A stretch of DNA of 64,000 nt, taken from the NCBI GenBank assembly GCA_964525295.1, contig CAZGEO010000001.1, positions 504,662-568,661 on the forward strand, in the 5' to 3' direction. The translations under genes and the position numbers were made by a program. The notes beneath the pieces were generated by a model. That model was given only the letters and a program-made list of their open reading frames with translations, searched no databases and was not told where the DNA came from. The stretch comes from an uncultured Candidatus Saccharibacteria bacterium. Its GTDB lineage: Bacteria; Patescibacteriota; Dojkabacteria; GCA-002793355. Of this stretch, positions 16,197 through 64,000 are shown in pieces (within the stretch, counting starts at the first letter, position 1; the number at the start of each line of letters is the position of its first letter).

Positions 16197-16286
16197 GTGT
16201 TTGACAACATGGTGAGAAACTGGATTCATAGAAACGCCCTTTTCGGTAGGATACATTCAACATTTAATCAATCATGGTTTTCATAG

Positions 16287-17254: not shown

Positions 17255-17257
17255 TTT

Positions 17258-17335
17258 TAAAACAAAAAAAGAGGTCTAAATCAAAAAGGCTGTAAGCGTT
17301 ACGCTTAACAAATGACCTTTAAGACTTAGACCTCT
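17258..17335 (-). terminator. Intrinsic terminator: 10-bp perfect stem AGAGGTCTAA/TTAGACCTCT (with inner GCGTAACGC hairpin) followed on the minus strand by U7-rich tract
   Basis: Plus-strand aacaaaaaaagaggtctaa...ttagacctct, downstream of gene 17384..17599. Confidence 0.5.
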
Positions 17336-17383
17336 CTACAACTCAACTAAGGGTAGCTGAGGGCTAATATCTAAATTATTTAC

Positions 17384-17599
17384 TTATTGTTTCGTTTTTC
17401 TTTTACCTGTTTTTATATGTAATATCGTGCTATCAATTCTTTTGTTTGATATTTTAATTTCGTAAGTTCCAAATTCAAATTTTACGAATTCTTCAATGAT
17501 TTTCTTGAGATCTTCCAAGTGGATATTATAGATTTCAGGGCTTTGTAATAGCTCAAGAAATTGTTTTTTGAGTTCAAGTGATATTTTAGATTGTGTCAT
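17384..17599 (-). CDS. Hypothetical small protein (71 aa)
   Basis: 14-nt overlap with the upstream ORF and the same orientation as the element genes. Confidence 0.4.
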   Translation of the reverse strand: MTQSKISLELKKQFLELLQSPEIYNIHLEDLKKIIEEFVKFEFGTYEIKISNKRIDSTILHIKTGKRKTKQ

Positions 17600-18365: not shown

Positions 18366-18580
18366 AGTATCGAGTTAAATATATCAATGTTTGTCACTAT
18401 ACTAATATATACCACTCAAAATAGTTTGTCAATAAATTTGCTATGTTTTACACTCAAGCTCAAAACTAAGAAACTAAGTATAAATTTAAAGCTTCGCTTT
18501 CTTATTATAATGTCGTTTCAGGTAAAATTGGGTAATGTATAAGCCGATTTAATACGGGAATAATTAATTATTAAAACAAA

Positions 18581-36625: not shown

Positions 36626-36679
36626 AACAGGTCATTATTAATTTTGAATTGAAATTTAATAGTTAATAATTAATAAGTA

Positions 36680-40101: not shown

Positions 40102-43100
40102 ACAACAATTTTCAGTTGTAGCGGTGTTTTTTCTGCGCCTACTTCAACAGTCGTAAAACCTGCGCCTTCAGGAGAAGTTGCTAGGATACTAACTTCACTT
40201 AAGAATGTCGTTGTTGCCAACTTTTCCTGATACTTGTTAATCATTTCATTGAGTTTTTTCTCTTCGCTGTAAACTTCAAGTTTTGCTCTTTGTCCAATTG
40301 CAAGGTTAGCATTCTTTCTAGCTGCCTGAACAGCACGAGAAATCTCGCGCAGTAGCCCCATCTCTGCAAGTTCTGGCGTAATCTCAGTTTCGAGCCCAAT
40401 AGTAACATCCTTTTCTGATTTGGTAACAATAGTAGTTGATTCTGGCATTACTTCAACCATTTCTACTGATTGCACATTGAGTTCTTCAGCGATTAAATCG
40501 AGATATTCCTGCTCAAGTTTCTTGTCAGCCTGATACATTACTTTTTGGAGAGGTTGCTTCAATGCTAATGCTTTTTCAACACGAATGTTCTGCCCGAGTG
40601 AGGCAACTTCACGAGTAAATTCCATTGTGGTTAACGCCTTTTCTTCTGCGGTTGTCAAAGCATTCACTTCTGGATACAACTCAAGATGCACAGATTCAAG
40701 CGTTAAGACAGTTGGTGCACCTTTTCTCAATTCTTGATAAATGTAATCGGCTATAAATGGCACTATGGGAGCAAAGATTTTTGCCACTGAAACAAGAACC
40801 GAAAAGAGCGTTTGTAACGCAGCTTTATCACCTGCAACGAATCTTTCTCGTGAACGACGAATGTACCACGTAGAAATGTCATCTATAAGAGGTTTTATCT
40901 CAGAAACAGCCTTTGGTACATGATAGGAACTTAGATGTTTATCAATATCAATGGCGGTCTTTTTAATTCGTGCAAGTACCCATTCATCGAGAACAGTTGG
41001 GGTAACTTTCGTTTCTGTAGCGTCAAAATTGTGTTGATTAGCGTATAGAGCGAAATATTTGTACACATTCATAAGTGGGAGTAAAACGTCTTTTATCGGC
41101 TGCGCAATTGCTTCTTCTGAAACGTTCAGATCTTCGCCAACCGGAAGAACGCTACCTGCGACATAAACTCTAAATGCATCTCCCCCATATTTTTCAATTA
41201 CTCCCTTTGGATCAGGATAATTCTTGAGACTCTTGCTCATCTTTCTGCCGTCAGTACCTTTGATAGTTCCTGTTACGATGACATTCTTAAACGCATTCGA
41301 TTTGAAAAGAATTGTTGAAACAACGTGCATGACATTGAACCACGCTCTTGTTTGTCCAACATATTCGATAACGAAATCTCCTGGGAAATTGTTTTCAAAT
41401 TTCTCTTTATTTTCGAAAGGATAGTGATATTGAGCAAAAGGCATTGATGCCGATTCAAACCAACAGTCTAAAACTTCTGGGACTCGTGTCATCGTACCTT
41501 TCTGGCATTCTTCACATTTCCACGTATGCGTATCAATGTATGGACGATGCAGGTTGTCTATTTTCTTTCCTGATTTTGCTTCAATTTCTGCAATTGAGCC
41601 CATGACTTCACGATGGTGACAGGTTGGTTCGGAACATTCCCAAATAGGCATAGGTGTCGCCCAGTAGCGGGTTCGTGAAAGTCCCCAATCAGGGAAGGTT
41701 TTGATCGCTTCGCTGAATCTACCGTATTTTAGATGTTCTGGAACCCAGTTGATGTTTTCGTTGTTTGCAAAAAGTTGCTCCTTTATCTGTTGAATATCGA
41801 CATACCAAGCGCCTTGAGCCTTGTAAACAAGTGGCGTTTTACAGCGATAACAGATTGGATAACTGTGAGTGATTCTCTCCTCTTTGTATAAAATACCTCG
41901 TTCCTTTAGATTCTCGGTTATTGCTGGATCAGCCTTTTTGAAATAAATGCCCGCATAATCGGCTACTTCTGAAATAAACTTTCCTTCATCATCAATGGTT
42001 TCGTGCATCGAAAGGCCAATTTCTTTTCCTAGTGCGGTATCATCTTCACCGAATCCTGGTGCCATGTGAATGATTCCCGTACCATCTTCAATACTGACGA
42101 AATCTGCGTGATAGATTTTGAAATCCTTGTCACCTGCTGGGAAGTAGTTGAACAGCGGTTTGTAGGTATTGCCAACTAATTCTTTACCTTTATAGGTATC
42201 AACTACCGTAAAGGGAGTTTCCTTTAACACTTTTTCTACTAAATTTGCAGCGAGAATGACATATTCCTCACCAATTTTGGCGGTAACGTAGTCTTGTTCT
42301 TTATCTACAACAAGTGCTGTATTGGCCGGCAGCGTCCATGGAGTCGTTGTCCAGGCCATTACAGAAACCTTAGGTTTGCTAATGTTAGGCTCTACTGTTT
42401 GCTCATTGATAATTGAAGATTGATAATTAACAATTGAGGGTTTGTTCTCTAGGATGTCTTTCAAGCAGTTCCTTGTTGGAATATGCATGTCGTTCCATGG
42501 AATATCGTTTTTGTCGAACCATTCAATGTTTTTATCAAGTCCCGCTTCGTCGGTAACTTTAATGTCACCTGTAACTTTCGCCTTAAAATGGTGAGTCTTG
42601 AACAATCTACCTTCGAAAATATCGATTGCGTAACCATAATATTCAAGAGCAGCAATATCGCAACCTATCTCCTCTTTAATCTCTCGGGCAACCGTGTTTT
42701 TTAAGTCGCCATTATCTTGCTCTTCATATTTTCCCCCGACGATTCCGTATACTCTATCTCGACCAGGTTCGTTTCTGCGAATCATCATTACTTGGCCCTT
42801 TTCATTTTCAATAACAACACCTGCGCCAACTCCGGTTTTGTAGTAATTCAATTCGAATTTAACAAAGACGGCTGGATCTTCCAGATCTGCATACGAGTTA
42901 TCCATTGCAATCTCGAAGTTAGAAAGTGGAGTTCCACATCGAGTGCAGTACAAAGAAACTCGTTTTCCTTGATAGACAAGCCCTTTTTCGAAGAATTGTT
43001 TGAAAACCCACATAACGGTTTCCATGTAATTCAAATCCATTGTTCGGTAGGGCTTTTTCATGTCAACCCAACGTGCAATTCTGTCGATATACCATTCCCA

Positions 43101-43505
43101 TTCACCAGAAACGTCGGTTACGTAGGAATAGCAAGAATCGATAAATTGTTGGATACCAATCTTAGTTTCGATCTCACGACGATTTTTAGTTTCGAATTTG
43201 CGTTCAACAATTTCTTCAATTGGCAAACCGTGACAGTCCCATCCCCAAACGCGTTTTACTCTCTTTCCTTTCATTGTTTGATAGCGAGGAACGATGTCTT
43301 TTATGATACTTCCGAGTAAGTGTCCGTAGTGAGGAAGTCCTGTAACGAATGGAGGCCCATCATAGAAAATGAAATGATCTTTTTCAGAACGGCTGGTAAT
43401 AGATTTCTCAAAAATGGAGTTTGATTTCCAATAATCAAGTATCGGTTGTTCCACCTCGTTGTAAAACGAGCGTACATTGGGAACTGAAAAAGAAGATTTA
43501 GTCAT
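40098..43505 (-). CDS. ileS: Isoleucyl-tRNA synthetase (type 2, eukaryote-like C-terminus) carrying a ~150-aa NUDIX-hydrolase insertion (about 42381-42833) between the catalytic-core Zn-knuckle region and the CP1 editing domain
   Basis: HIGH = PHYGHLLGS, KMSKS = KMSKSLKNYP, CP1 WTTTPWTLPAN. The insert holds a Nudix box GIVGGKYEEQDNGDLKNTVAREIKEEIGC. The gene is leaderless (TATAAT 5 nt before the ATG). Confidence 0.9.
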   Translation of the reverse strand: MTKSSFSVPNVRSFYNEVEQPILDYWKSNSIFEKSITSRSEKDHFIFYDGPPFVTGLPHYGHLLGSIIKDIVPRYQTMKGKRVKRVWGWDCHGLPIEEIVERKFETKNRREIETKIGIQQFIDSCYSYVTDVSGEWEWYIDRIARWVDMKKPYRTMDLNYMETVMWVFKQFFEKGLVYQGKRVSLYCTRCGTPLSNFEIAMDNSYADLEDPAVFVKFELNYYKTGVGAGVVIENEKGQVMMIRRNEPGRDRVYGIVGGKYEEQDNGDLKNTVAREIKEEIGCDIAALEYYGYAIDIFEGRLFKTHHFKAKVTGDIKVTDEAGLDKNIEWFDKNDIPWNDMHIPTRNCLKDILENKPSIVNYQSSIINEQTVEPNISKPKVSVMAWTTTPWTLPANTALVVDKEQDYVTAKIGEEYVILAANLVEKVLKETPFTVVDTYKGKELVGNTYKPLFNYFPAGDKDFKIYHADFVSIEDGTGIIHMAPGFGEDDTALGKEIGLSMHETIDDEGKFISEVADYAGIYFKKADPAITENLKERGILYKEERITHSYPICYRCKTPLVYKAQGAWYVDIQQIKEQLFANNENINWVPEHLKYGRFSEAIKTFPDWGLSRTRYWATPMPIWECSEPTCHHREVMGSIAEIEAKSGKKIDNLHRPYIDTHTWKCEECQKGTMTRVPEVLDCWFESASMPFAQYHYPFENKEKFENNFPGDFVIEYVGQTRAWFNVMHVVSTILFKSNAFKNVIVTGTIKGTDGRKMSKSLKNYPDPKGVIEKYGGDAFRVYVAGSVLPVGEDLNVSEEAIAQPIKDVLLPLMNVYKYFALYANQHNFDATETKVTPTVLDEWVLARIKKTAIDIDKHLSSYHVPKAVSEIKPLIDDISTWYIRRSRERFVAGDKAALQTLFSVLVSVAKIFAPIVPFIADYIYQELRKGAPTVLTLESVHLELYPEVNALTTAEEKALTTMEFTREVASLGQNIRVEKALALKQPLQKVMYQADKKLEQEYLDLIAEELNVQSVEMVEVMPESTTIVTKSEKDVTIGLETEITPELAEMGLLREISRAVQAARKNANLAIGQRAKLEVYSEEKKLNEMINKYQEKLATTTFLSEVSILATSPEGAGFTTVEVGAEKTPLQLKIVV

Positions 43506-43555
43506 TGGGTATTATAGCGATTAATGCGGTAAAGTGGTAGAGCTATTGAGATAAA

Positions 43556-44435: not shown

Positions 44436-46280
44436 ATGACAACAACTCAGCTTTCTACTCTTTTTTCTGCAATAGAAACGACTCCAAAAAGACTCGAAAT
44501 GCAGGCATTACTCACAGATTTTTACGCAAATGCTTCTTCTGAAGAGGCTGCAATAGTGTCGTATTTACTTATTGGCCGATTGGTGCCTGATTTTATTGCG
44601 GTTGAGTTCCAATTATCAGACAAAACATTGCGTGCAGTAGTTGAAGAACAACAAGATCAGGATATCTCAGAAAAATTGGCTAAATTGGGGGACATTGGTT
44701 CAGTTTGGGAAGCCTCGTCTACGACATCGGGTGAAATAACGGTAGAAGATTTGTATCAGAAACTCTGGGAAATTGCCCAAACAACCGGAACTGGCTCTCA
44801 GAAGAAAAAACAGGAATTGATTAAGAAATTGTTGCAACAAGTATCACCTCTTTCAGGAAAGTACGTATTGCGAATTATGAATAGTAAATTGCGATTAGGG
44901 GCGAGTGAACGAACTATTTTAGAAGCTCTGGGAAAATTACCAGGTGGAGAAATCGAGAAATTAAAGGAATTGTATGCTAATACGAGCGATATCGGTCACA
45001 CAGCATTTCTTTTCAAAAAATACGGAACTGAATGTTATAAACAAGCTTCGTTTCAGCCTGGTGTTCCTGTGTCAGCAAAGTTGGTTGAACGTGAAGATTC
45101 AATTGAATCGATATTTAAGCGAATTCCTGCTCCACTAGAAGAACCGAAATATGATGGCTTACGCATACAAATACACGTATTTCGAACCGATGCAGCAAAA
45201 GTTGCGTATGCAGAACGAGTGTGGGCAAATAATTATCAATTATCAATTACCAATGCTCAATTAAAAGACGAAAAGGCAGCGACATTGTCACTCTTTGCCG
45301 AGCCGGTCGAACTGAAAGAAGACGAATTTACTGTGCAATTGTTCTCTCGCAATCTTGAGAATATGACTGAAATGTTTCCTGAAGTGGTTGAAGCAGCAAA
45401 GAAGTTACCTGAGCAATATTCGAGAAAGTTCGGTGAAAAGGTAGATTCCATTGTCCTAGATGGTGAAGTTATTGGTTACAACGATGTAGTTCAAGAATAT
45501 CTTCCTTTTCAGCAGACAATGACTCGAAAGCGCAAACATGACGTTGGCAATGCCTCAGATGCCGTACCAGTCAAAGTTTTTTCCTTCGATATTTTGTTGC
45601 TAGGTGATCGCAATCTTATGGCTCTTCCATTGCGTGAGCGTAAGGCACTACTAACATTTCTTGATGAGAATGCTGATGTGCAGCAAACAATTGTTAAGAC
45701 ACCAATCCATGAGCCAAAGACTCTTGAAGAAGGTGAGAAAATCTTCGAAACATACATTGCGCAAGGATTAGAAGGCGTAATATTTAAAGATAGTGATTCT
45801 GTTTATACTCCAGGAACTAGGAATTTTGATTGGTTAAAATTCAAACGAGCAATGCGTAGCGATCTTGCGGATAGCGTTGATATTGTACTTTTAGGGTATT
45901 ATCGAGGCGAGGGAAAACTGGCAACTTTTGGTATTGGAGCTCTTCTTGCAGGTGTATACGACCGAAAAAGTGACAAATTCTTAACGGTGACAAAAATAGG
46001 AACAGGAATTACCCATGAACAGTGGCAATCGATCAAAATCGCTTGTGATGCCGTTAAAAGTGACCGCCATTTGGACAATGTTATCGTTCCAAAATCATTA
46101 GAGCCTGATGTTTGGCTTTTACCTTCATTGGTAGTTGAGGTCGAGGCAGATGAAATTACGAAAAGTCCGTTGCATACGTCAGGATATGCTTTGCGATTTC
46201 CAAGATTTAAGAAATTCCGTGAGAAAAAGGCTGAAGATGCAACAACAATTGAAGAACTCAAAGAAATAGCCAAGATCTAA
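44436..46280 (+). CDS. ATP-dependent DNA ligase (Lig1/LigB-type: DNA-binding, adenylation and OB domains)
   Basis: Motif I EPKYDGLRIQ (KxDGxR), later motifs IVLDGEV, EGVIFK, DIVLLGYYRG. The leaderless start is 44436 (TGTATAAT then 5 nt then ATG); the track start is 44430. Confidence 0.85.
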   Translation: MTTTQLSTLFSAIETTPKRLEMQALLTDFYANASSEEAAIVSYLLIGRLVPDFIAVEFQLSDKTLRAVVEEQQDQDISEKLAKLGDIGSVWEASSTTSGEITVEDLYQKLWEIAQTTGTGSQKKKQELIKKLLQQVSPLSGKYVLRIMNSKLRLGASERTILEALGKLPGGEIEKLKELYANTSDIGHTAFLFKKYGTECYKQASFQPGVPVSAKLVEREDSIESIFKRIPAPLEEPKYDGLRIQIHVFRTDAAKVAYAERVWANNYQLSITNAQLKDEKAATLSLFAEPVELKEDEFTVQLFSRNLENMTEMFPEVVEAAKKLPEQYSRKFGEKVDSIVLDGEVIGYNDVVQEYLPFQQTMTRKRKHDVGNASDAVPVKVFSFDILLLGDRNLMALPLRERKALLTFLDENADVQQTIVKTPIHEPKTLEEGEKIFETYIAQGLEGVIFKDSDSVYTPGTRNFDWLKFKRAMRSDLADSVDIVLLGYYRGEGKLATFGIGALLAGVYDRKSDKFLTVTKIGTGITHEQWQSIKIACDAVKSDRHLDNVIVPKSLEPDVWLLPSLVVEVEADEITKSPLHTSGYALRFPRFKKFREKKAEDATTIEELKEIAKI

Positions 46281-46432
46281 TTATTAATTATTGATCTTCA
46301 ATTCTCAGTGATAAGTGCGTTCTGCTAGATATTTTTGTATTGATAATTGAAAATTAATAATTATGAATTAATTATGGTATCCTACAGTATCGGCGTATTG
46401 TTACTATAAGTAATTTCTATCGTAAATAAAGA

Positions 46433-49494: not shown

Positions 49495-49735
49495 AACTTC
49501 CCAGTCACTATTTCGAATTCATTTTATGGATATCTTTGGCCTTACCGCCTCATAACTACGTTGTGAAAATCACTTCGGGGTTTAGGGCTCGATATTTCGA
49601 CACTTTGAGTCCACTTTATGATTTTGCTTTCACCCACGCCCTAACGGACGTGGAATTCATGTTCCGAACTAGAATAATGCCCCAAGCCTTGCTTGCGTAG
49701 TATCAGCGTAACGTATTACGCCTTATGACAAATGA

Positions 49736-51244: not shown

Positions 51245-51396
51245 ACTAATTCATTATACCTTTTCGATACTAATTATCAATTGTTAATTTTCAATACTCA
51301 ATTTTAAGGAGTAAATAACGAAGTGTTAATTTGTAAAAGTCATCTATTAAAAACAAACTTCTTGCGAAAAATGTAAATACTCGATACACTGTTCCT

Positions 51397-52905
51397 ATGA
51401 AAGGATATATCTCACGACTAGTTCAGGAGCGTCTTGAACAATCAATTGCAAGTAATCTTATTACCATGATAATTGGCCCGCGACAGGTGGGGAAAAGTAC
51501 GTTAATGCAACATGCCCAAGAAATGGTAGAAAAGAAGCAGAGAACTGAGAAGAAAGATGGCGCAATGATAATTTCTCGTAACGTTTTCACGTATATTCTT
51601 GATGATATGCAATTGCGAAGTGCATTGAAAAAAGATGTTCGCTATATCCAAAAAGATATTGAACTTTCATTGGGCGAAATGCTTGAAAAAACAGAACAAA
51701 CAGTTCATATTTTTATTGACGAAGTACAAAAAATGCCTGCCTTGTTCGATTGGATGAAGCAGGTTTTTGATTCAAATAGTGAGCATGTCAAATTCATTCT
51801 CTCTGGTTCTTCTGCGGTATCGATCACGTCAGTCGCGAGCGAGACACTCGCAGGAAGAGTTGAATATATCAATGTCTATCCATTCGTTTATAACGAATTG
51901 CTTGGTGCAAAAGCTGGCATAGAACAATCATTTTTTGAAGACTTGATAAAAGAAATTGATTCTTACGCTGGTGGTGAAGCCTCGAGTGAAAGCGCAGATG
52001 ATATTTTGGCTCAACTAACAGCAGCCAGACCTGGTGCTGCTGATATTATGGCTTCTCTGATGGCATACTTTGATAAAAAACTTCCTGAATATCATAGTAA
52101 ACTGTCACCTGTCGTGCGTGAAGCTACGGCTTGTGTTGTAGAAACATTGTTTTATGGTGGTTTACCGAGAGTAATTACCGCTCCAATCGAAGAAAGAATA
52201 CGCATGATAAAAAACTATATTGATGTCTACATGGAAAAAGAGATCGGGACACTTGCAAGAAATCTCGATCTGGAGCTTTTTGGTTTGAGTTTGCAGTCAT
52301 TTGCACAGCAAAATGGGTCAACACTCAATATTAATCAAGTAAGTAAAGATGTTGGTATTTCTCGCCCAAGTTTATACAAGTATCTTGATTTATTGGAAAA
52401 TACCTATTTGATCAAGAAAATTCATCCATATGCAGCAGGCGGAGTATCAGAAGAAGCCACAAAAAGCGTGGTCATGTACTATCTAGATACTGGAATCCTG
52501 AACAATTTATCTTACGTTACGTCAATGCAAGAGATGATGCGTCCTGATGTCTTTTCTCGTATTTTAGGTACTTGGATGATGGGAAGTATGCTCGCCTCAT
52601 TTAGTATGTTGCCTCATGTGCCGGCGGTATCGTATTGGCAAAATTATGCTGGTCACAAATTAGACTTGGTGTTTGAACGTGGCGATATAGCATTTGCCTT
52701 TATGCTCCAGAAACCAAAAGATCCACGAAGAATTCGCTCAACTATTGAAAAATTTGCCGAAACTACGAGTCGTTCGAATGTTGTCATCTTCATGCCTTAT
52801 CTTGATGCTGTAGGTATGTCACTTGCGTATAAAATCGAGGTTAGCGAAGTTGAGGCAGGTAAACGAGTTCTAACGGTCGAAATTCCAGTACAGTTTCTTG
52901 GATAA
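51397..52905 (+). CDS. AAA-family ATPase (AAA_14 + DUF4143-like)
   Basis: Walker A IIGPRQVGKST, Walker B HIFIDEVQ. Confidence 0.65.
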   Translation: MKGYISRLVQERLEQSIASNLITMIIGPRQVGKSTLMQHAQEMVEKKQRTEKKDGAMIISRNVFTYILDDMQLRSALKKDVRYIQKDIELSLGEMLEKTEQTVHIFIDEVQKMPALFDWMKQVFDSNSEHVKFILSGSSAVSITSVASETLAGRVEYINVYPFVYNELLGAKAGIEQSFFEDLIKEIDSYAGGEASSESADDILAQLTAARPGAADIMASLMAYFDKKLPEYHSKLSPVVREATACVVETLFYGGLPRVITAPIEERIRMIKNYIDVYMEKEIGTLARNLDLELFGLSLQSFAQQNGSTLNINQVSKDVGISRPSLYKYLDLLENTYLIKKIHPYAAGGVSEEATKSVVMYYLDTGILNNLSYVTSMQEMMRPDVFSRILGTWMMGSMLASFSMLPHVPAVSYWQNYAGHKLDLVFERGDIAFAFMLQKPKDPRRIRSTIEKFAETTSRSNVVIFMPYLDAVGMSLAYKIEVSEVEAGKRVLTVEIPVQFLG

Positions 52906-52984
52906 TTTGCAATTCATAATTATCAATCGTCAATAGCAGTGATTCAGGCTTATTAAGAATTGAGTATTGAAAATTAATAATTAT

Positions 52985-55203: not shown

Positions 55204-56583
55204 ATGGAACCAATGCAATTTTTTGAGAAAAACAAACAGCGCTTGCTTGAAGAGATTGTAGAGTTATTGAAAATTCCTTCGATTTCTACGAGAGATGAAA
55301 ATAAAAAGGATATCGCAGCAGCGGCAAATTGGGTTGAAAAGAAGTTGCAGCAGATGGGAATGGACAATGTTACGCAAGTAACCGTGAATGGGGGCAATCC
55401 TGTGATTGTTGCCGAAAAAATATTTGATAACAACCTACCAACCCTTCTTGTTTATGGACATTATGATGTGCAACCGGCTGAACCTCTAGAAGAATGGCAA
55501 AGCTCTCCTTTTGAGCCAGAAATTCGTGAAGGAGCGATTTATGGAAGAGGCACGACAGATAATAAAGCCCAATTTCTAACAAATTTTGCAGCATTGGAGT
55601 ATTATTTATCAGAACAAACTAATAAAACGTGGAATATCAAAGTAGCCATTGAAGGTGAAGAAGAGATTGGTGGGCCATCAATTGACGCCATGATTGTTGA
55701 TCCCCACTATAGCGAGCATTTTAAGGCTGACTATGCGTATATTTCTGATGGTCCATGGGTAAAAAATGATGTTCCTTCGATTGAATTTTCCTTGCGCGGA
55801 TTGGTGTATTTTGACCTAACACTGCGAACGTCACGTTCAGATATGCATTCTGGATTATTTGGTAACAGCGTTATGAATCCAGCTAATTTGGCTGGTTATG
55901 TGATCTATAAATTAAAGGATGTGTTGGCAAATCGCATAAAGGTAGCAAATATTTACAAACAGGTTCGTAAATTGTCGGAAGAGGAGATTGAATCGATTAA
56001 TACCGGTTCTATGAGCTGGGCTGATGTTAAGGAGCATTCTGGGGCATTTGTGATTACTCCAACCAGAAAAGACGGTAAATTGATGACTCCAGCGGTACTC
56101 ACAGGTACAAAACCAAGTCTTGATGTTCATGGTATTTCTACAGGTTTTACCGAAGTCGGTCGTATGAAAACGGTTATCCCTGCAACTGCTTTTGTGAAGT
56201 TCAGTATTCGTTTAGTTCCGTTTATGAATCCAGATGAAGTGGTAGCTTTGGTTGAAAAGTACGTAAAAAAGATTATGCCAAAAAATGTTGAATATGAACT
56301 AGTCTGTTTGTCGAAGGGCAAACCCTACTTGACTGATCCAAATGATGAACGGGTTCGTCACTTGATCGCTTCGTACGAAACTGCTTTCGGTAAATCACCA
56401 GTCCTGGCTCCAAGTGGCGGTTCCATTGGACTGGTGACAACGCTCGCAGAGGCTCATGGTGTCAAATCTCTGCTCGCCTCATACGGACTTCCAGATGATC
56501 GCCTGCACGGCCCTAACGAAAAGTACAATTTGAGCCAATTCGAGGGTGGATTTAGAACACTAGTGGAGTTTTTAAAACAATAG
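55204..56583 (+). CDS. M20-family metallopeptidase (dipeptidase/ArgE-DapE-like)
   Basis: LVYGHYDVQPAEPLEEWQSSPFEPEIREGAIYGRGTTDNKAQ, EGEEEIGG. Confidence 0.75.
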   Translation: MEPMQFFEKNKQRLLEEIVELLKIPSISTRDENKKDIAAAANWVEKKLQQMGMDNVTQVTVNGGNPVIVAEKIFDNNLPTLLVYGHYDVQPAEPLEEWQSSPFEPEIREGAIYGRGTTDNKAQFLTNFAALEYYLSEQTNKTWNIKVAIEGEEEIGGPSIDAMIVDPHYSEHFKADYAYISDGPWVKNDVPSIEFSLRGLVYFDLTLRTSRSDMHSGLFGNSVMNPANLAGYVIYKLKDVLANRIKVANIYKQVRKLSEEEIESINTGSMSWADVKEHSGAFVITPTRKDGKLMTPAVLTGTKPSLDVHGISTGFTEVGRMKTVIPATAFVKFSIRLVPFMNPDEVVALVEKYVKKIMPKNVEYELVCLSKGKPYLTDPNDERVRHLIASYETAFGKSPVLAPSGGSIGLVTTLAEAHGVKSLLASYGLPDDRLHGPNEKYNLSQFEGGFRTLVEFLKQ

Positions 56584-56586
56584 TGA

Positions 56587-56650
56587 ATTAAAGCGGTAAA
56601 GTAGTAAAGCACTAGCGCGCGAAAGCATTAAAGCGCTAAAGCAGTAATGC
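56587..56650. repeat. Octanucleotide tandem array (8 x NNTAAAGC-like units)
   Basis: attaaagc ggtaaagt agtaaagc actagcgc gcgaaagc attaaagc gctaaagc agtaatgc. Confidence 0.7.
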
Positions 56651-56675
56651 TTTAATATGGTGATTCCAAGTAAAT

Positions 56676-57689
56676 TCAACTTTTGTCATTCTCCATCAGC
56701 CATGCTGTGAATGAGTCTGGAGCAACGTTCAGTATTCGTAAGAATGGGTATTGAGGGCGTGCGACGTCTCTTGCAATGTAGGGAGCTTTGTGGAGATCGC
56801 GGGGAACAATTGTTGGATGTTCAGTATCTTTGAAGATTTTTATTACTGTTGGTCCGAGATTTTTGTGGAAAACTTCATGACGAATACCAGAATATTCTAG
56901 CCATACTTGGAGTGGTATTGCGAAGCTCAGTGGAAGTTCGTATTTTTTGATTATTTTTTGGAGGGTAAGATAATTGAATCCTGAGGCGCATAGCTCACTT
57001 AATTTCGTTGAGTGCACGATCTGCAACATTCTTTCTCGCCCAATTGAATAGCTTTCTGGCCATGAATAGCCAAATATCTTTCGAGTTAAGGCGAGGTGAG
57101 TCTCTTGTGTGGTATTGACGGGTAGAATGATGGGAATTTCGAAAAAAATTTCGGGACGATCAAAAGATGACAATAGAATGTATCCACCTGGCTTCGTTCT
57201 TTCCCACATGCGGTTAAGTATTTCGCCAGAATCAGTCATCGAAAAAAGTGCATTAAAAGAAGCCACAACGTCAAACTGTTCATTGTGCAGATAGCCTCCG
57301 TTGCCTAGGTCATGAGCATCGCAAATGAAGGGGCGAATTCGAGTATTTATATAATCTGGTGTGCTTCTCCATCTAGATTCAAATCGCTGAATAATATCTA
57401 AAGCTGTGTAACGAATTCTTTTTCTTGCTTGAAGTGCTAATGCAACAATTTCGCGTGCTATGTCAGATGATTGTGCACCAATTTCCAATATTTCACATTT
57501 CTCTGGTAAGTTCGGTATTTCTAATGCACGGAGAATCTCTGGCAAGTGATATTTTTCTGCCCATTCACGGTTATAGTCGGCATGAGAGTACCCATTATAG
57601 TGTTCTGTCGGTGCATTTAACTTTGCAACTAGGTCATAGTTGGCTTCCTTTCCGACTTTCGGCGCGGGCAGCAGATTGTGGTTCTGCAT
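56676..57689 (-). CDS. Putative SAM-dependent methyltransferase-like protein (337 aa)
   Basis: Weak motif I CEILEIGAQSSDIAREI. The gene is flanked on both sides by octamer arrays. Confidence 0.45.
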   Translation of the reverse strand: MQNHNLLPAPKVGKEANYDLVAKLNAPTEHYNGYSHADYNREWAEKYHLPEILRALEIPNLPEKCEILEIGAQSSDIAREIVALALQARKRIRYTALDIIQRFESRWRSTPDYINTRIRPFICDAHDLGNGGYLHNEQFDVVASFNALFSMTDSGEILNRMWERTKPGGYILLSSFDRPEIFFEIPIILPVNTTQETHLALTRKIFGYSWPESYSIGRERMLQIVHSTKLSELCASGFNYLTLQKIIKKYELPLSFAIPLQVWLEYSGIRHEVFHKNLGPTVIKIFKDTEHPTIVPRDLHKAPYIARDVARPQYPFLRILNVAPDSFTAWLMENDKS

Positions 57690-57726
57690 TGTTATGTATT
57701 ATCCCATAATGTTAAGCGGGACTCAA

Positions 57727-57846
57727 GATAAAGCATGAGGGAGGTAAAGAATTAAAGCAGTAAAACGGTAAAACACGGAAGCACTAGAGCATTAAAGCAT
57801 TAGAGTACTAAAGCGCTAAAGCAAGAAAGTAGGAAAGTTATAAAGC
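57727..57846. repeat. Octanucleotide tandem array (about 15 x NNTAAAGC-like units); its 3' end is the left boundary of the 5079-bp tandem duplication
   Basis: ...ggtaaaga attaaagc agtaaaac ggtaaaac acggaagc actagagc attaaagc attagagt actaaagc gctaaagc aagaaagt aggaaagt tataaagc. Confidence 0.7.
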
Positions 57847-57847
57847 G

Positions 57848-57876
57848 CAAAAAAATTAATGCTTTATCGCATTAAT
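57848..57876 (-). terminator. Intrinsic terminator of the nth-like gene: ATTAATGC-loop-GCATTAAT hairpin overlapping the stop codon, followed by U7 on the minus strand
   Basis: Plus strand gcgcAAAAAAATTAATGCtttatcGCATTAAT. An identical copy lies at 62927..62955. Confidence 0.5.
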
Positions 57877-58516
57877 CTGCTACCTTGTACTTGTTGAGAA
57901 TATTGTTTGGGTCTTTCATCTGAATGTGATTCGACAAGTGTTGTCCAACAAGCACGAGAATGCGGTTCGTTTTGATCCATAATTCTTTTGGAAGTTTCTT
58001 GCGTAAGGCAAATTCTGTTTGTTCAGGAGTTTTGGTTGTAACGTACCCAATATGATTCATGATGCGATGCACGTGAGTGTCAACACAAATTGCAGGAATG
58101 TCAAAAACTACCGATTGCACAAGATTTGCAGTTTTACGACCAACACCAGGGAGTTCGAGTAGCTGTTCCATTTCGCTAGGTACATTTCCTTGATATTTTT
58201 CGATGAGTATCGAAGAAAGTTCTTTGAGGTGCTTTGCTTTTGTCGTGTAAAAGTTGATAGGTCGGAGCAATTGTGCAAGCCTATCGATTGGTATTGCCAT
58301 CATTTTTTCGGGGGTACTTGCTTCTTGCCACAATCCAGGCATACGTGTATTCGTTAAGCTGTCTTTGGTTCTTGCAGAAAGTACTATCGAAACCAAGGTA
58401 AAAAAAGGTGATTTGTAGGTTTCATGAACTGCTTCTGCGAATGAAAGCGGCGCTTCAATCGATTGCAATTCTTTTTCAAGAGCTTCGTAAAATTCGGCTA
58501 TAGAAACAGTATTCAT
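57872..58516 (-). CDS. nth: Endonuclease III-like HhH-GPD DNA glycosylase/lyase lacking the C-terminal [4Fe-4S] Cys cluster (copy 1)
   Basis: HhH-GPD LLELPGVGRKTANLV with the catalytic Lys, VDTHVHRI with Asp, and no C-x6-C-x2-C-x5-C at the C-terminus. Confidence 0.75.
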   Translation of the reverse strand: MNTVSIAEFYEALEKELQSIEAPLSFAEAVHETYKSPFFTLVSIVLSARTKDSLTNTRMPGLWQEASTPEKMMAIPIDRLAQLLRPINFYTTKAKHLKELSSILIEKYQGNVPSEMEQLLELPGVGRKTANLVQSVVFDIPAICVDTHVHRIMNHIGYVTTKTPEQTEFALRKKLPKELWIKTNRILVLVGQHLSNHIQMKDPNNILNKYKVAD

Positions 58517-58548
58517 AAAATTCTTATTAACTTAATGTTACGTATCAC

Positions 58549-60204
58549 TTAGTAAATTGCGCACTTCACGTCAATGAAGTCGAAGTCGTTGATGCTGCTT
58601 AGTTTGTCGTTTGCTTGGCTTGCTACAGTAACGGTTGCCTGCGCTGCCTGGTATTCTGTGCAAGTTTTTTGTTCGGCGACCTCTGGTGGGTAGTAAACCA
58701 CAACAGGAATTAGGTTTTCTGCTAAACAGGCGTCTTTTCTGAAGAAGAGTATGCCATACCACATACAGCGATTGTATGACTCTTTTTTCTCATCAATTTC
58801 TGCTTGGGTTGGAAGGTTGAGGCTGGCAATTCCAGCTTTTCCGGTGACAGCACCTTGACCAACTACAATATAATCTGAATAATCGATTATTGAAGATATT
58901 GTTGAACCGACAAAAGCTCCTGTAAGAGGCATTATAACAAGTCCCGATTCTCCTTTCTCAGGTGATAGGATTTCCAATGCATTTGGTTCTGGAGCTGGAT
59001 TCGGTGTGGCTGTATTCGTTGGTGCATAAGTCGGGGTACTTGTTGCGGTTTGAGAGGGAGTATTAGTGGCAGTAGGTGTCGTTGTCTGTATTACTGTCAT
59101 TGAAGTACATTGACCATTAGATTCAATGTAGCCACTCGAACAGGTAGCATGTTCTGTGTCTGTAGCATCATAACAGGGGATCGAATTAGGTGTTCCTTTT
59201 TTAACAGTTCCGCTTTTTGGACATTGAGGTTCGCGTCTACATAAAACTCCAGATGCAGTAAATGGAGGCTTACACTCAAAGCGAGACGCATTTTGTTTAT
59301 CGTAACATTGTGTCGCATTTTTGACGTTGTTACCCACGGTTGGATAAGAACATTGTGGCGTTTTGAGGGTACTTGCAACACAAACCCCGTCTTTCAACAT
59401 ATATCCTGAATTGCATTCATTAAGCTCTTTATTGGTTTTATCGTAACAAGTATGTGAATAGAGTATAACTTTTGAGGTTGTTGCTCCAGAACATTGTGGC
59501 GTTTTGAGTATGATGGTTGGCGTCGGTGTGTGCCCTGTGCATTCACCTTCTTCGTGAGTGGATGTTGTTGTTGTGTATGCACAGCACTTCAAGGCATTGT
59601 TCCATTCTTCACCTGATCTACAGGTTGTTGGTGTTGTAGCAATGGTCGTTATTGCGGGGCATCGTGTTGTAGTTTTTGACAAAGCGGTTGCACCATTTGC
59701 TTTCTTTGCGCATCTATACATAAAGCCATCTCTACCACATCTATCGGGTGTGCCGAGATCACATTCATCCCCATCGTTTGCACTGCCAGTCGGCGCTACA
59801 GGTGTTGTTGTCGTTGGTACTGACGCTACTGAGACTCCACAGTCTTCTTCCATTTTGCCTGGACGATAACGATAATCTTTACCTTTAGGACTATCAGCAG
59901 GGCATCGTTCACCTAATTTTGTTTCGGGGCCGTAATATTCAACTGCTTTGGCTGGCGAAGTACATGAGCAGTTGCCCTGTTTGTTACAAACGGCAACTTT
60001 CTTGCTTCCGCAATCGAGGTCTGAAGGTTTTTTTGCTTTTTCAGCATTTTTGCTTTTTGCAAACGAACCAAACACAAATTCTTGCGTTTCAGTTCCTGAG
60101 ACAATAAACGTGGTTACCACAAGGAGCGAGAGCGCCGCGAATGCGATAATTACGTTCTTTACCGAGAAAACCTTAGCAATTGATGATTTTTTAACTTTTA
60201 CCAT
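58549..60204 (-). CDS. Secreted/membrane-anchored cysteine-rich modular protein: N-terminal signal-anchor, Cys-rich region, 3-4 tandem ~45-aa six-Cys modules (TPQCS..C.D...EC.SGY...G.C), Thr/Pro-rich linker, C-terminal domain
   Basis: Repeats KTPQCSGATT...CYDKTNKELNECNSGYMLKDGVCVA / KTPQCSYPT...CYDKQNASRFECKPPF..GVLC / PQCPKSGT...CYDATDTEHATCSSGYIESNGQCTS, then TTTPTATNTPSQTATSTPTYAPTNTATPNPAPEP. Confidence 0.7.
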   Translation of the reverse strand: MVKVKKSSIAKVFSVKNVIIAFAALSLLVVTTFIVSGTETQEFVFGSFAKSKNAEKAKKPSDLDCGSKKVAVCNKQGNCSCTSPAKAVEYYGPETKLGERCPADSPKGKDYRYRPGKMEEDCGVSVASVPTTTTPVAPTGSANDGDECDLGTPDRCGRDGFMYRCAKKANGATALSKTTTRCPAITTIATTPTTCRSGEEWNNALKCCAYTTTTSTHEEGECTGHTPTPTIILKTPQCSGATTSKVILYSHTCYDKTNKELNECNSGYMLKDGVCVASTLKTPQCSYPTVGNNVKNATQCYDKQNASRFECKPPFTASGVLCRREPQCPKSGTVKKGTPNSIPCYDATDTEHATCSSGYIESNGQCTSMTVIQTTTPTATNTPSQTATSTPTYAPTNTATPNPAPEPNALEILSPEKGESGLVIMPLTGAFVGSTISSIIDYSDYIVVGQGAVTGKAGIASLNLPTQAEIDEKKESYNRCMWYGILFFRKDACLAENLIPVVVYYPPEVAEQKTCTEYQAAQATVTVASQANDKLSSINDFDFIDVKCAIY

Positions 60205-60239
60205 AATTTCATAGTACCGAATCTATAAAACTTGTCAAG

Positions 60240-60947
60240 TCAATAGTCTTCGGCTTCTGCCACATCTTCAACGTATTCGAAAGGCATTTCTAAATATTCG
60301 TTTACAGTTTTTAGCGAAAAAGTGTCAAAGAGGTCTGTTCTTTGAGCAATTTCTTCTGCTGTATTCCAAATATTCTCTTGATGAGCGGTTTGTTGAATGA
60401 ATTCACCACCAATATCAGTAACTAAGTGACGGTAAAAAATTACATCTTGGACTGTTGATTCACCGTGCTTACGAATTTTATGATAAATATTGATCAGCTT
60501 AATATTTTTGGCAGTTAGGCCTGTTTCTTCAAAAAGCTCTCTGAGTACAGCATCTTTTAAAGTTTCGCCAAAGCGTACTTTGCCACCGAGAAAGCCAACT
60601 TTTCCATAATATGGTTGTCGAAGACGCTTTGAGAGTAAAAATTCATCGTGATTCGTGCCTGTACGTTTGCGTGTAACAATGAAGATAACGGAAGTCTTCG
60701 GCTGTTTTTCGATCTCTGTGATTGTGTCATCCATCAAATTTGCGTAATCTTTTCCGGTATCAGTTAATTCATAATGTCCATTTCTTCGGCGAACGAACTC
60801 AAGTTCCATCAATTTCTGTAGATGGTAATTCATGTGTTCGCTTTCAATTCCTTCGATTATTAGGTCGTTGAATCGAAGTGGATCTTTATGCAGAGTCAGC
60901 TTTCGCAAGAGCTCTTTTTGTAAATTGTGTAATTTTGTTTCTGTCAT
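60240..60947 (-). CDS. NUDIX hydrolase with N-terminal winged-helix domain (reverse domain order relative to NrtR)
   Basis: Nudix box GGKVRFGETLKDAVLRELFEETGL. N-terminal wHTH-like LQKELLRKLTL...FNDLI...YHLQKLMELEFV. Confidence 0.65.
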   Translation of the reverse strand: MTETKLHNLQKELLRKLTLHKDPLRFNDLIIEGIESEHMNYHLQKLMELEFVRRRNGHYELTDTGKDYANLMDDTITEIEKQPKTSVIFIVTRKRTGTNHDEFLLSKRLRQPYYGKVGFLGGKVRFGETLKDAVLRELFEETGLTAKNIKLINIYHKIRKHGESTVQDVIFYRHLVTDIGGEFIQQTAHQENIWNTAEEIAQRTDLFDTFSLKTVNEYLEMPFEYVEDVAEAEDY

Positions 60948-61083
60948 GATTGATTATTATGCGATTTTAGCATTGATTCAACTGAAAAATATTTTAGTAA
61001 GAGAAATAATCTGCGATATCGATTCTCCAAGTAATTGAGCATTAATGATTGATAATTAATAATTAAACAGGTTATAATCCTCA

Positions 61084-62883
61084 ATGCAGCGAACAATTTC
61101 ATCTCAACTCCTTCCTCTTGCAGGTCAAAAAGCACGCGTTGAAGGGTGGTTACATAACTTCAGGGAACTCGGAAAAATCGGTTTTTTGATACTTCGAGAT
61201 CGTGGTGGGTTGGTACAGGTAGTTGTTGATAACGCTGATTCGTTAAAGAAAATTAAGGATTTGCAACCAGGTTCAGTAATTCGAGCAATTGGTGAAGTAA
61301 AAGAAACAAAGGCAACAGACAATAAAGTGGAACTCGTGAATCCAGAAATTGAGGTGTTGGTTCCTATTCATGAAATTCCACCGGTCGCATATAACAAGAA
61401 GGGGCTTGATGTAAATATTGATACTGAGCTTGATTATCGTCCTTTGGTTATTCGCAACTTGAAGAAACAAGCGATATTTCGAGCGCAGGCAGTTATATTG
61501 CAAAAGTTCGCAGAATCACTACGGAATCAAGGGTTTACCGAATTTCGTTCCCCGGTTTTGATGAATGCGCCGTCTGAAAGTGGAGCAAGCGTTTTTGAAG
61601 TTAATTATTTTGAAGGAAAGGCATATCTTGCACAATCACCGCAAATATATAAGCAGATTATGGTTACTGCGTTTGAGCGCGCATTTTGCGTTGGTACGGT
61701 ATTTAGAGCAGAGAAACACAATACAACAAGGCACTTGATGGAGATTACTCAGATGGACGCAGAAATGGGCTTCATTGAGAATTATGATGAAGCAATGGAA
61801 GTAGCAGAAACCGTCATTCGTGACATTATGACTGCTGTTTCGTCACAATTCGAGAAAGAATTGGCAGAATATGGCGTAGATTTGCCCAAATTGCCGACAG
61901 AAAGATTTCCAAAAGTGAAAGTTAAAGAAGCATTGAAGATTATTGAAGAGCGCATCGGAAAAAGCGCAGCACGTGAAGAATTGGATCTTGATCCAGAAGA
62001 TGAGCGAGAATTAAGTAAATGGGCCCTAGAAAAGTTTAATTCAGACTTTTTGTGGGTACTGAACTTTAAAGGAAACAAGAACTTTTACACTTGGGATAAT
62101 CCAGAAGATGCAGAAGAATCATTGAGTTTTGACCTCGAGTTTCGAGGACTTGAAATGTTGTCTGGAACTCATCGTATTCATGATTATGAAAAACTACATG
62201 AAAGATTCTTGAAACAGGGGTTAACTGAAGCTTACTACGAACATTATTTTCAGGCCTTCAAATACGGTATGCCATCTGAAGCTGGATTTTCTTTCGGTCT
62301 AGAACGTTTGACCATGAAATTGTTCAACTTGCCGAATGTTCGAGAGGCTACATTGTTCCCTTCAGATTTGAAGCGAATAGCTGCAATGAACAGAATAAAG
62401 GAAGTTATCAAAGGTGAAAAAGAAGTTGTCGCTAAAATTAAGCAAATTCTCGATACTCGCGCGATGGAGTACACTTTCGAAGAACATGAAGCTGTACAAA
62501 CTAGTGAAGAAGCTGCAGCTTTGCGTGGCGTTCCTCTCTCTTCTGGAGCTAAAGCGCTCATTCTCAAGGGAAAAAAGAGCAGTAAGCATGTTATGGTTGT
62601 TGTTCCTGGAGATAAAAAACTCGATATGCGGGCAGTATCTGAAAAGGTCGGTGAAAAAGTTGAATTTGAAAAACCTGAAGCTATTCTCGATACTTACGGT
62701 ATTATGGTCGGTGGCGTGCCTCCATTCGGTAACGTTCTCGGAATGCGAGTGTTGCTAGATGAAAATGTTGCCAATAATCCAAAAGTTTCGTTTAATGCAG
62801 GAATGCGAACGTGCTCGATTTCGATGAATGGTGCAGATCTTGCCGAGGCAAATGAGGGAGAAATTGGGAAATTTAGTGCCTAG
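61084..62883 (+). CDS. Archaeal/eukaryotic-type aspartyl/asparaginyl-tRNA synthetase fused to a C-terminal YbaK/ProX-like aminoacyl-tRNA deacylase domain (about 62416-62883)
   Basis: N-terminal OB fold, class II motifs (QSPQIYKQ, FRAEKHNTTRHLMEITQMD, GLERL). C-terminal KALILKGKK..KHVMVVVPGDKKLDMRAVSEKVGEKVEF..PE....GIMVGGVPPFG....VLLDE....VSFNAG matches YbaK. Leaderless (TTATAAT 6 nt upstream). Confidence 0.8.
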   Translation: MQRTISSQLLPLAGQKARVEGWLHNFRELGKIGFLILRDRGGLVQVVVDNADSLKKIKDLQPGSVIRAIGEVKETKATDNKVELVNPEIEVLVPIHEIPPVAYNKKGLDVNIDTELDYRPLVIRNLKKQAIFRAQAVILQKFAESLRNQGFTEFRSPVLMNAPSESGASVFEVNYFEGKAYLAQSPQIYKQIMVTAFERAFCVGTVFRAEKHNTTRHLMEITQMDAEMGFIENYDEAMEVAETVIRDIMTAVSSQFEKELAEYGVDLPKLPTERFPKVKVKEALKIIEERIGKSAAREELDLDPEDERELSKWALEKFNSDFLWVLNFKGNKNFYTWDNPEDAEESLSFDLEFRGLEMLSGTHRIHDYEKLHERFLKQGLTEAYYEHYFQAFKYGMPSEAGFSFGLERLTMKLFNLPNVREATLFPSDLKRIAAMNRIKEVIKGEKEVVAKIKQILDTRAMEYTFEEHEAVQTSEEAAALRGVPLSSGAKALILKGKKSSKHVMVVVPGDKKLDMRAVSEKVGEKVEFEKPEAILDTYGIMVGGVPPFGNVLGMRVLLDENVANNPKVSFNAGMRTCSISMNGADLAEANEGEIGKFSA

Positions 62884-62885
62884 TA

Positions 62886-62925
62886 AGTAAAGCGCTAAAG
62901 CAAGAAAGTAGGAAAGTTATAAAGC
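62886..62925. repeat. Octanucleotide array (5 units), second copy at the duplication junction
   Basis: agtaaagc gctaaagc aagaaagt aggaaagt tataaagc, identical to 57807-57846 except for the first unit. Confidence 0.7.
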
Positions 62926-62950
62926 GCAAAAAAATTAATGCTTTATCGCA

Positions 62951-63595
62951 TTAATCTGCTACCTTGTACTTGTTGAGAATATTGTTTGGGTCTTTCATCT
63001 GAATGTGATTCGACAAGTGTTGTCCAACAAGCACGAGAATGCGGTTCGTTTTGATCCATAATTCTTTTGGAAGTTTCTTGCGTAAGGCAAATTCTGTTTG
63101 TTCAGGAGTTTTGGTTGTAACGTACCCAATATGATTCATGATGCGATGCACGTGAGTGTCAACACAAATTGCAGGAATGTCAAAAACTACCGATTGCACA
63201 AGATTTGCAGTTTTACGACCAACACCAGGGAGTTCGAGTAGCTGTTCCATTTCGCTAGGTACATTTCCTTGATATTTTTCGATGAGTATCGAAGAAAGTT
63301 CTTTGAGGTGCTTTGCTTTTGTCGTGTAAAAGTTGATAGGTCGGAGCAATTGTGCAAGCCTATCGATTGGTATTGCCATCATTTTTTCGGGGGTACTTGC
63401 TTCTTGCCACAATCCAGGCATACGTGTATTCGTTAAGCTGTCTTTGGTTCTTGCAGAAAGTACTATCGAAACCAAGGTAAAAAAAGGTGATTTGTAGGTT
63501 TCATGAACTGCTTCTGCGAATGAAAGCGGCGCTTCAATCGATTGCAATTCTTTTTCAAGAGCTTCGTAAAATTCGGCTATAGAAACAGTATTCAT
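62951..63595 (-). CDS. nth: Endonuclease III-like HhH-GPD glycosylase (copy 2, identical to 57872..58516)
   Basis: The 214-aa translation is identical. Confidence 0.75.
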   Translation of the reverse strand: MNTVSIAEFYEALEKELQSIEAPLSFAEAVHETYKSPFFTLVSIVLSARTKDSLTNTRMPGLWQEASTPEKMMAIPIDRLAQLLRPINFYTTKAKHLKELSSILIEKYQGNVPSEMEQLLELPGVGRKTANLVQSVVFDIPAICVDTHVHRIMNHIGYVTTKTPEQTEFALRKKLPKELWIKTNRILVLVGQHLSNHIQMKDPNNILNKYKVAD

Positions 63596-63627
63596 AAAAT
63601 TCTTATTAACTTAATGTTACGTATCAC

Positions 63628-64000
63628 TTAGTAAATTGCGCACTTCACGTCAATGAAGTCGAAGTCGTTGATGCTGCTTAGTTTGTCGTTTGCTTGGCTT
63701 GCTACAGTAACGGTTGCCTGCGCTGCCTGGTATTCTGTGCAAGTTTTTTGTTCGGCGACCTCTGGTGGGTAGTAAACCACAACAGGAATTAGGTTTTCTG
63801 CTAAACAGGCGTCTTTTCTGAAGAAGAGTATGCCATACCACATACAGCGATTGTATGACTCTTTTTTCTCATCAATTTCTGCTTGGGTTGGAAGGTTGAG
63901 GCTGGCAATTCCAGCTTTTCCGGTGACAGCACCTTGACCAACTACAATATAATCTGAATAATCGATTATTGAAGATATTGTTGAACCGACAAAAGCTCCT
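63628..64000 (-). CDS. 3' portion of a second copy of the cysteine-rich modular protein gene (truncated by window end)
   Basis: The C-terminal 71 aa are identical to the copy-1 C-terminus, and the frame stays open to the window edge. Confidence 0.6.
   Translation of the reverse strand, partial: GAFVGSTISSIIDYSDYIVVGQGAVTGKAGIASLNLPTQAEIDEKKESYNRCMWYGILFFRKDACLAENLIPVVVYYPPEVAEQKTCTEYQAAQATVTVASQANDKLSSINDFDFIDVKCAIY

Follow-up and report, generated by a model that had tools for sequence, protein, structure and literature searches.

Tandem duplications that arise independently of RecA, between microhomologies or short repeats, are known from Salmonella and Escherichia coli, where the join points include intergenic repeats of the repetitive extragenic palindromic (REP) and bacterial interspersed mosaic element (BIME) types. 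Unstable tandem amplifications also underlie dosage adaptation or heteroresistance. The genomes of the candidate phyla radiation (CPR, or Patescibacteria) are small, streamlined, and almost repeat-free. The locus described here lies at the end of a 64,000-nucleotide stretch of DNA, referred to throughout as the window, from an uncultured Candidatus Saccharibacteria bacterium of the Dojkabacteria lineage (GenBank assembly GCA_964525295.1, contig CAZGEO010000001.1, positions 504,662 to 568,661 of the forward strand). In the window, a block of 5,079 bp, termed unit U, is followed by the beginning of an identical second copy. This arrangement is, in our judgment, likely to be a genuine and very recent head-to-tail tandem segmental duplication of U that was mediated by microhomology.

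When compared with the short-repeat duplications of Salmonella and E. coli, the locus is similar in that it spans a few kb in head-to-tail orientation, joins within a few bases contributed by short intergenic repeats, leaves genes intact and copies identical, and would be expected to be unstable. It differs in its host, a CPR bacterium with a reduced genome; in its repeats, which are lineage-specific arrays of the octamer TAAAGCRN rather than REP, insertion sequence (IS), or rrn elements; and in its cargo, where an essential aminoacyl-tRNA synthetase is found alongside a hypervariable surface protein. With heteroresistance-type amplifications it shares a recent and perfect duplication, perhaps carried by part of the population, that would raise dosage, whereas here two copies are in part view, with no known selective agent or phenotype.

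Two further kinds of system bear comparison. Assembly artefacts, such as traversal of a graph loop or overlap of a circular contig, also yield identical copies of which the second runs into the end of the sequence, but in this case an independent k=31 graph requires the junction, and the 5,079-bp period comes with a single TAAAGCG at the join. Integron/attC cassette arrays are likewise made up of blocks bounded by repeated intergenic elements, and a one-gene methyltransferase block is present in one strain and absent from another at this locus. Unlike such arrays, the locus has no integrase and no attC-like imperfect palindromes, carries genes on both strands, retains conserved core synteny, and has simple direct repeats at its breakpoints.

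Repeat structure of the locus

Self-comparison of the window showed that positions 57809-58921 recur at 62888-64000 on the same strand, with 0 mismatches over 1,113 bp and a period of 5,079 bp, so that the exact recurrence reported in the initial annotation was reproduced. A match of this length (1.1 kb) and exactness cannot be attributed to chance, and besides this pair no other large direct repeat was found in the 64-kb window. The left edge of the repeat is sharp at 57809/62888: the exact match extends no further leftward (0 bp), and 20-bp blocks beyond it share about 25-30% identity. On the right, the window ends, at 64000, before an edge is reached. The period equals the length of U, and the copies are adjacent and head-to-tail. 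Two adjacent direct copies, as a tandem duplication demands, are therefore present, with 1,113 bp of copy 2 in view. Unit U carries the genes for an endonuclease III-like protein (nth), a Cys-rich surface protein, a winged helix-turn-helix (wHTH)-Nudix protein, and an AsxRS-YbaK fusion. The features that define the duplication are as follows.

57809..62887, no strand assigned: unit U, copy 1, 5,079 bp, comprising octamer-array tail, nth terminator, nth, Cys-rich surface protein, wHTH-Nudix, and AsxRS-YbaK plus 4 bp
62888..64000, no strand assigned: unit U, copy 2, first 1,113 bp, comprising array tail, terminator, complete nth, and the 3' part of the surface-protein gene
62951-63595, minus strand: nth of copy 2, complete
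from 63628, minus strand: surface-protein gene of copy 2, 3' part
62881..62895, plus strand: novel junction, in which the AsxRS stop TAG is followed by TAAG and then by TAAAGCGC, the end of U being joined to the start of U
57809..57815, plus strand: 7-bp microhomology TAAAGCG, found again at 62888-62894 and as the opening 7 bp of the native flank past AsxRS (which starts TAAAGCGG)

Anatomy of the junction

For the description of the junction, the upstream flank was labelled A, the unit U, and the native downstream flank D, the last of these starting with an octamer array and a RodZ-like gene. Copy 1 is preceded by …TAGAGTAC. Past the AsxRS stop, the window reads TAAG and then TAAAGCGC TAAAGCAA GAAAGTAG…, which is the start of U and leads to nth. 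A sister strain with ~97% DNA identity, represented by contigs L002 and L003 of sample SRR32934939 in the public Logan assemblies, instead reads TAG AAG TAAAGCGG TAATGAGA TAAAGCAG TGAAGCGT… at the same position; this is a distinct octamer array, beyond which lies the RodZ-like gene. The junction-spanning sequences, with the join marked by a slash, are given below.

A→U: …GAGTAC / TAAAGCGC
U→U: …CCTAGTAAG / TAAAGCGC, or in longer form …GTGCCTAGTAAG / TAAAGCGCTAAAGCAAG…
U→D: …CCTAGTAAG / TAAAGCGG

In the array 3' of nth, the heptamer TAAAGCG forms the first of the duplicated units, and in the array natively located after AsxRS it likewise forms the first unit. On either side of it, one parental breakpoint has C where the other has G; the right-hand G was read from the sister strain, and a base other than C is implied at this place by the end of a Logan contig described below. 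The join thus shows the few shared bases, with no longer homology, that characterize a microhomology-mediated event. It is intergenic, and no gene is broken by it.

Arrangement in related genomes

In the sister strain, contig L002 carries, in order, Nudix (minus strand), AsxRS (plus strand), an octamer array, a RodZ-like HTH_25 gene (minus strand), and the start of a RecD-like helicase, whereas contig L003 carries the surface protein, nth, an octamer array, an M20 peptidase, UbiA, and UbiA. Between them, the two contigs cross both duplication breakpoints unbranched, and the duplication is absent from the SRR32934939 strain. In all five of the other Dojkabacteria species available (L004-L007 and L012; 78-73% AsxRS identity), AsxRS is followed directly by the RodZ-like gene. 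Wherever flanking sequence was available, nth and Nudix lie upstream of AsxRS in these species, and nth was found after AsxRS in none of the five. The junction seen in the window is therefore novel with respect to both the 97% strain and the five species.

Because U is single-copy in the sister strain and in the five species, A–U–D was taken to be the ancestral order and the A–U–U of the window to be derived. Judged from these sequence comparisons, the full ancestral order is M20 peptidase–(methyltransferase)–octamer array–nth…AsxRS–octamer array–RodZ-like gene–RecD-like helicase. The exact AsxRS protein of the window is recorded on an NCBI contig of 659,080 bp and in Logan assemblies, and a RodZ-like protein (P0135) and a RecD-like helicase (P0159) are recorded on an NCBI contig of this same length. 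As neither is encoded in the window itself, the native flank must still exist downstream, and a placement of P0135 and P0159 beyond the second copy fits.

Independent evidence from Logan assemblies

Logan assemblies are built from k=31 de Bruijn graphs (Cuttlefish2 unitigs and Minia3 contigs), in which each 31-mer is kept once per accession and contigs end at branches (PMC12424806). A duplicated unit should therefore appear collapsed into one copy and bounded by branch points. Logan contig SRR11582163_19100 (L001) has a length of 5,086 bp and corresponds to window positions 57809-62894 with 0 mismatches; it begins at the first base of U and overshoots U by exactly 7 bp, which are TAAAGCG. Records of this 5,086-bp contig exist for 2 samples. 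That SRR11582163 contains the window genome was also evident from a second contig of 36,270 bp, which is 100% identical to the window over the 13.4 kb retrieved.

Unitigs were simulated at k=31 for several arrangements, with D taken from the sister strain. The arrangement A-U-U-D gave a unitig identical to the Logan contig, whereas A-U-D alone gave an unbroken 14-kb unitig and A-U-U without D gave 5,109 bp. A combination of A-U-D with a free circle of U gave the same graph as A-U-U-D and reproduced the Logan contig equally well. From these simulations, the reads of SRR11582163 must hold both the U→U and the U→D adjacency, with D beginning with TAAAGCG followed by a base other than C, and the junction is not an assembler invention. 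The read support is independent of the assembly under study; it comes through the contig boundaries at 57809 and 62894 and not from the reads themselves.

Several points weigh against a tandem duplication as the source of these observations. The A→U, U→U, and U→D edges are equally yielded by a fixed two-copy duplication, by a duplication carried in a subpopulation, and by a single chromosomal copy accompanied by a free circle of 5,079 bp; whichever of the three applied, an assembler obliged to traverse all edges would output U twice. For the strain of the window itself, the U→D edge follows from the 7-bp overshoot together with the sister-strain sequence and was not read directly. The window stops 1,113 bp into copy 2, so that the rest of this copy and the join of the unit to D fall outside it.

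Alternative explanations

The alternative that survives best is that most cells have one copy of U, and that the U→U junction stems from a subpopulation, or from a transiently excised 5,079-bp circle, the assembler having threaded the loop once and put two copies into the consensus. This explanation appears rather unlikely to us but accounts for the available data as well as the favoured one: the Logan contig is matched by the simulated mixture of A-U-D and a free circle as exactly as by A-U-U-D, the two copies show perfect identity, and tandem duplications, as known from work on Salmonella and E. coli, are typically unstable and heterogeneous. On the other side, the branch was retained in two samples even though Minia prunes low-coverage connections, which suggests, from assembler heuristics rather than from any measurement, that the junction is not rare. 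Given the normal instability of duplications, the one seen here is expected either to be under selection or to be present in only part of the population.

A pure artefact, in which the reads would contain no U→U junction at all, is very improbable. Such an artefact might be an untrimmed circular-contig overlap, by way of a wrapped window, or a mis-join, and it would agree with a window that ends inside copy 2, with the identity of the copies, and with the unestablished provenance of the source record. However, an independent assembly of reads breaks exactly at 57809 and at 62887+7, and a simulated unitig that lacks the U→U edge does not. An arbitrary terminal overlap would not coincide to the base with these branch points and with the 7-bp microhomology. 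Had the overlap been the size of the graph edge, it would measure 5,086 bp rather than 5,079, with a doubled TAAAGCG at the join, which was not seen; moreover, short-read k-mers of 31 or more cannot jump 7 bp of identity. With regard to an untrimmed circular overlap in particular, copy 1 does not lie at a terminus of the window but is preceded by 57.8 kb of contiguous sequence (the termini of the record itself are outside the view).

Probable mechanism and age of the duplication

The favoured explanation, a microhomology-mediated tandem duplication, would proceed from two arrays lying 5,079 bp apart, both with a TAAAGCG unit, as substrates. A replication template switch, or a misaligned exchange between sister chromosomes, could then have taken place between the 7-bp TAAAGCG microhomologies, and the end of AsxRS (stop plus TAAG) would thereby have been joined to the TAAAGCG unit 3' of nth. 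This mechanism was inferred from the anatomy of the junction and from general knowledge of bacterial duplications. As 7 bp are too few for RecA-type homologous recombination, microhomology-mediated (illegitimate) duplication is the better description. In the initial annotation, the arrays had been proposed to mediate unequal recombination between them. The part played by the arrays is supported in a narrower form: the crossover lies within the 7-bp TAAAGCG common to both, which is too short for classical homologous unequal recombination.

Each copy would retain the nth terminator and the divergent promoter region between Nudix and AsxRS. Both copies should therefore be functional, copy 2 presumably being complete, in which case the dosage of all four genes would be doubled. 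Concerning the age of the event, 0 differences were seen in 1,113 bp, and the collapsed Logan contig is unbranched over 5,079 bp, compared with a divergence of ~3% from the sister strain. The identity of the copies against this background of strain divergence indicates that the event is very recent, in line with the earlier suggestion of either a very recent event or heterogeneity.

Gene content of the unit

The genes and regulatory features of copy 1 of U are listed below.

57849-57878, minus strand: intrinsic terminator of nth, with a 10-bp A/U-rich stem, a 6-nt loop, and a U-run; duplicated at 62928-62957
57872-58516, minus strand: nth, endonuclease III-like HhH-GPD glycosylase (PF00730, 2.3e-22)
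58549-60204, minus strand: Cys-rich surface protein, 551 aa, with 30 Cys, an N-terminal hydrophobic anchor, and Thr-rich linkers
60240-60947, minus strand: wHTH (DUF7347)-NUDIX protein, from domain search
61084-62883, plus strand: AsxRS (class-II, non-discriminating-type AspRS) with a C-terminal YbaK-like tRNA_edit domain

This inventory agrees with the content first assigned to U, which consisted of an nth homolog, a Cys-rich surface protein, a wHTH-Nudix protein, AsxRS-YbaK, and a terminator hairpin. The description of the nth product as an endonuclease III homolog without an Fe-S cluster is correct, since the protein has a single Cys and hence no 4Fe-4S motif. The hairpin is likewise present, as a stem and U-run on the minus strand, and its predicted fold has an energy of -15.6 kcal/mol (z = -2.15).

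No family was returned by a Pfam search for the 551-aa Cys-rich protein. Comparison with the 97% strain (L003 2-1354) showed that its C-terminal ~100 aa are ~95% identical, whereas its middle part has ~35-55% protein identity between strains and gives no alignment at the DNA level; the flanking genes have 97% DNA identity. This pattern makes the hypervariable surface protein a candidate for a role in host interaction and for diversifying selection.

Homologs of the AsxRS, which are annotated as aspartate--tRNA(Asn) ligase, come overwhelmingly from Candidatus Dojkabacteria (CPR/Patescibacteria), and the closest one found by protein search in the genome collection, from which the species itself is absent, has 78% identity. 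An exact 34-mer from the end of U likewise had no match in three DNA collections (genome_contigs, viral_contigs, and metagenome_contigs). Fusions of AsxRS to YbaK, of ~600 aa, are common in Dojkabacteria and are also seen in a small number of other CPR. Among close relatives (55-63% identity), many proteins have ~440 aa and no tRNA_edit domain, and the fusion is for this reason regarded as lineage-restricted. A second fusion of a synthetase with an accessory domain is encoded elsewhere in the window: an IleRS of 1,135 aa (40098-43505, minus strand) has a NUDIX domain inserted at residues 224-336.

Octamer arrays

Two octamer arrays are located in the window upstream of, or overlapping, the start of U.

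56573..56652, plus strand: octamer array 1, 10 units, between the M20 peptidase stop and the methyltransferase stop
57729..57848, plus strand: octamer array 2, 15 units, between the methyltransferase start and the nth terminator

A third array, outside the window, follows AsxRS in the sister strain. The units conform to the consensus TAAAGCRN in strict 8-bp phase, with positions 1-6 strongly conserved and position 8 free, and a triple-unit pattern gave 15 matches versus 0.16 expected from shuffles. The duplication breakpoint falls on a unit boundary of array 2 (unit 11). Both copies of U had been described in the initial annotation as beginning inside octamer arrays. The arrays are real; the "array" of copy 2, however, is merely five duplicated units from the tail of array 2. 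A 3-unit remnant was also noted at 43522-43543 (TAATGCGG TAAAGTGG TAGAGC), between the stop of a 266-aa gene and the IleRS start; it shares with the other arrays its plus-strand orientation and a position immediately 3' of a minus-strand gene.

Equivalent loci of the other Dojkabacteria have no octamer arrays. An Rfam search of the arrays gave no family, no excess of consensus promoter or terminator sites was seen in them, and apart from the nth terminator no significant RNA structure was found around them. When metagenomes were scanned for three perfect units, most matches were to unrelated, perfect 8-bp variable-number tandem repeats (VNTRs) such as (TAAAGCCG)n, which are found in 7-13 copies on many unrelated metagenome contigs. 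Loci with perfect octanucleotide repeats include L101, L121, L124, L135, L139, L142, L143, L171, L201, and others. Other perfect 8-mers seen in metagenomes include TAAAGCGA and TAAAGCAA; these have the look of simple VNTRs, unlike the degenerate TAAAGCRN arrays.

The arrays are the least understood component of the locus. Since two independent variants, the duplication and the methyltransferase cassette described below, break at one and the same unit, it is conceivable that they act as a dedicated, recombination-prone boundary element of this Dojkabacteria species that drives repeated gain, loss, and duplication of adjacent blocks, with the present duplication perhaps maintained for its doubling of a fast-evolving host-interaction surface protein, but this idea is doubtful.

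Methyltransferase cassette and other variants

A second structural difference between the strains was found immediately upstream of U.

56644..57808, minus strand: methyltransferase cassette (class-I S-adenosylmethionine-dependent), consisting of the gene at 56676-57689 and its own 10-unit array, as defined by gene order and by alignments against L003

The cassette is absent from the 97% strain, in which a single array joins M20 to nth (L003 2033-2150). Perfect 15-bp direct repeats of the sequence TAAAGCGCTAAAGCA flank it in the window (56629-56643 and 57809-57823), and the sister-strain sequence is exactly what a deletion between the TAAAGCGCTAAAGCA repeats would leave. One copy of TAAAGCGCTAAAGCA begins at 57809, the same base as the duplication breakpoint. 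That the duplication and the cassette variant both use the array unit at 57809 supports the view that the arrays supply breakpoints. They are not the sole source of variation, as the window also has a 69-bp insertion away from any array (49662-49730, versus L003 ~8992), which is intergenic and upstream of a Pur_ac_phosph_N gene.

A haplotype lacking the methyltransferase was considered as the cause of the Logan contig break at 57809 and was rejected, since the 36,270-bp contig from the same sample crosses the other cassette boundary, at array 1, and enters the methyltransferase cassette unbranched. This contig ends at 56885, inside the methyltransferase gene, where the window contains no repeat that would account for a break; another haplotype, or a 31-mer shared with another organism, are candidate causes.

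The idea that U and the methyltransferase are mobile gene cassettes, moved in the manner of an integron by a site-specific recombinase that recognizes the arrays, with the repeat arising by tandem integration or as a circular intermediate, draws on the break of both variants at the unit TAAAGCG(C) at 57809, on the position of the arrays, themselves lineage-specific, at cassette-like gene boundaries, and on a large serine recombinase encoded at 13140-14756, but it is improbable in the extreme, because the order nth…Nudix–AsxRS–RodZ-like is core synteny conserved in five other species that have no arrays, no recombinase domain was found in U or in the 14 kb upstream, the serine recombinase (the only one in the window) is 44 kb away in an AT-rich island of its own by tRNA-Ser, and short direct repeats of 7 and 15 bp fully explain both events.

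The AT-rich island (33-35% GC) spans 13140-19500 beside tRNA-Ser(GCT) at 13179-13268 and coincides with a local reversal of GC skew. It encodes the large serine recombinase (13140-14756, minus strand), a Replic_Relax protein (15024-16001, minus strand), and an HTH_36 protein (16287-17075, minus strand), and is probably an integrated mobile element.

An AT-rich motif made up of TTGATAATT / ATTAATA heptamers recurs in many intergenic regions in both orientations, at the positions given below.

Window: 36656-36676, 42405-42437, 45231-45263, 46278-46372, 51261-51305, 52903-52983, and 61032-61066
L002: 988-1021, 2910-2940, and 3925-3950

The motif copy at 61049-61078 overlaps the best sigma-70-like promoter upstream of AsxRS (TTGATA-18-TATAAT), and one copy lies inside the IleRS reading frame. 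The motif is probably a promoter-associated element.

Significance

For practical purposes, the region will distort single-copy-marker counts and read mapping for this genome. The analysis also shows that contig boundaries in public de Bruijn assemblies such as Logan can validate a suspected duplication junction where the reads themselves are not accessed. Microhomology-mediated tandem duplication is a well-known type of event, found here in an unusual host, and the result is in this sense confirmatory rather than surprising. With an essential tRNA synthetase and a hypervariable surface protein newly duplicated in one event, the locus offers a rare direct view of structural change in a CPR genome.

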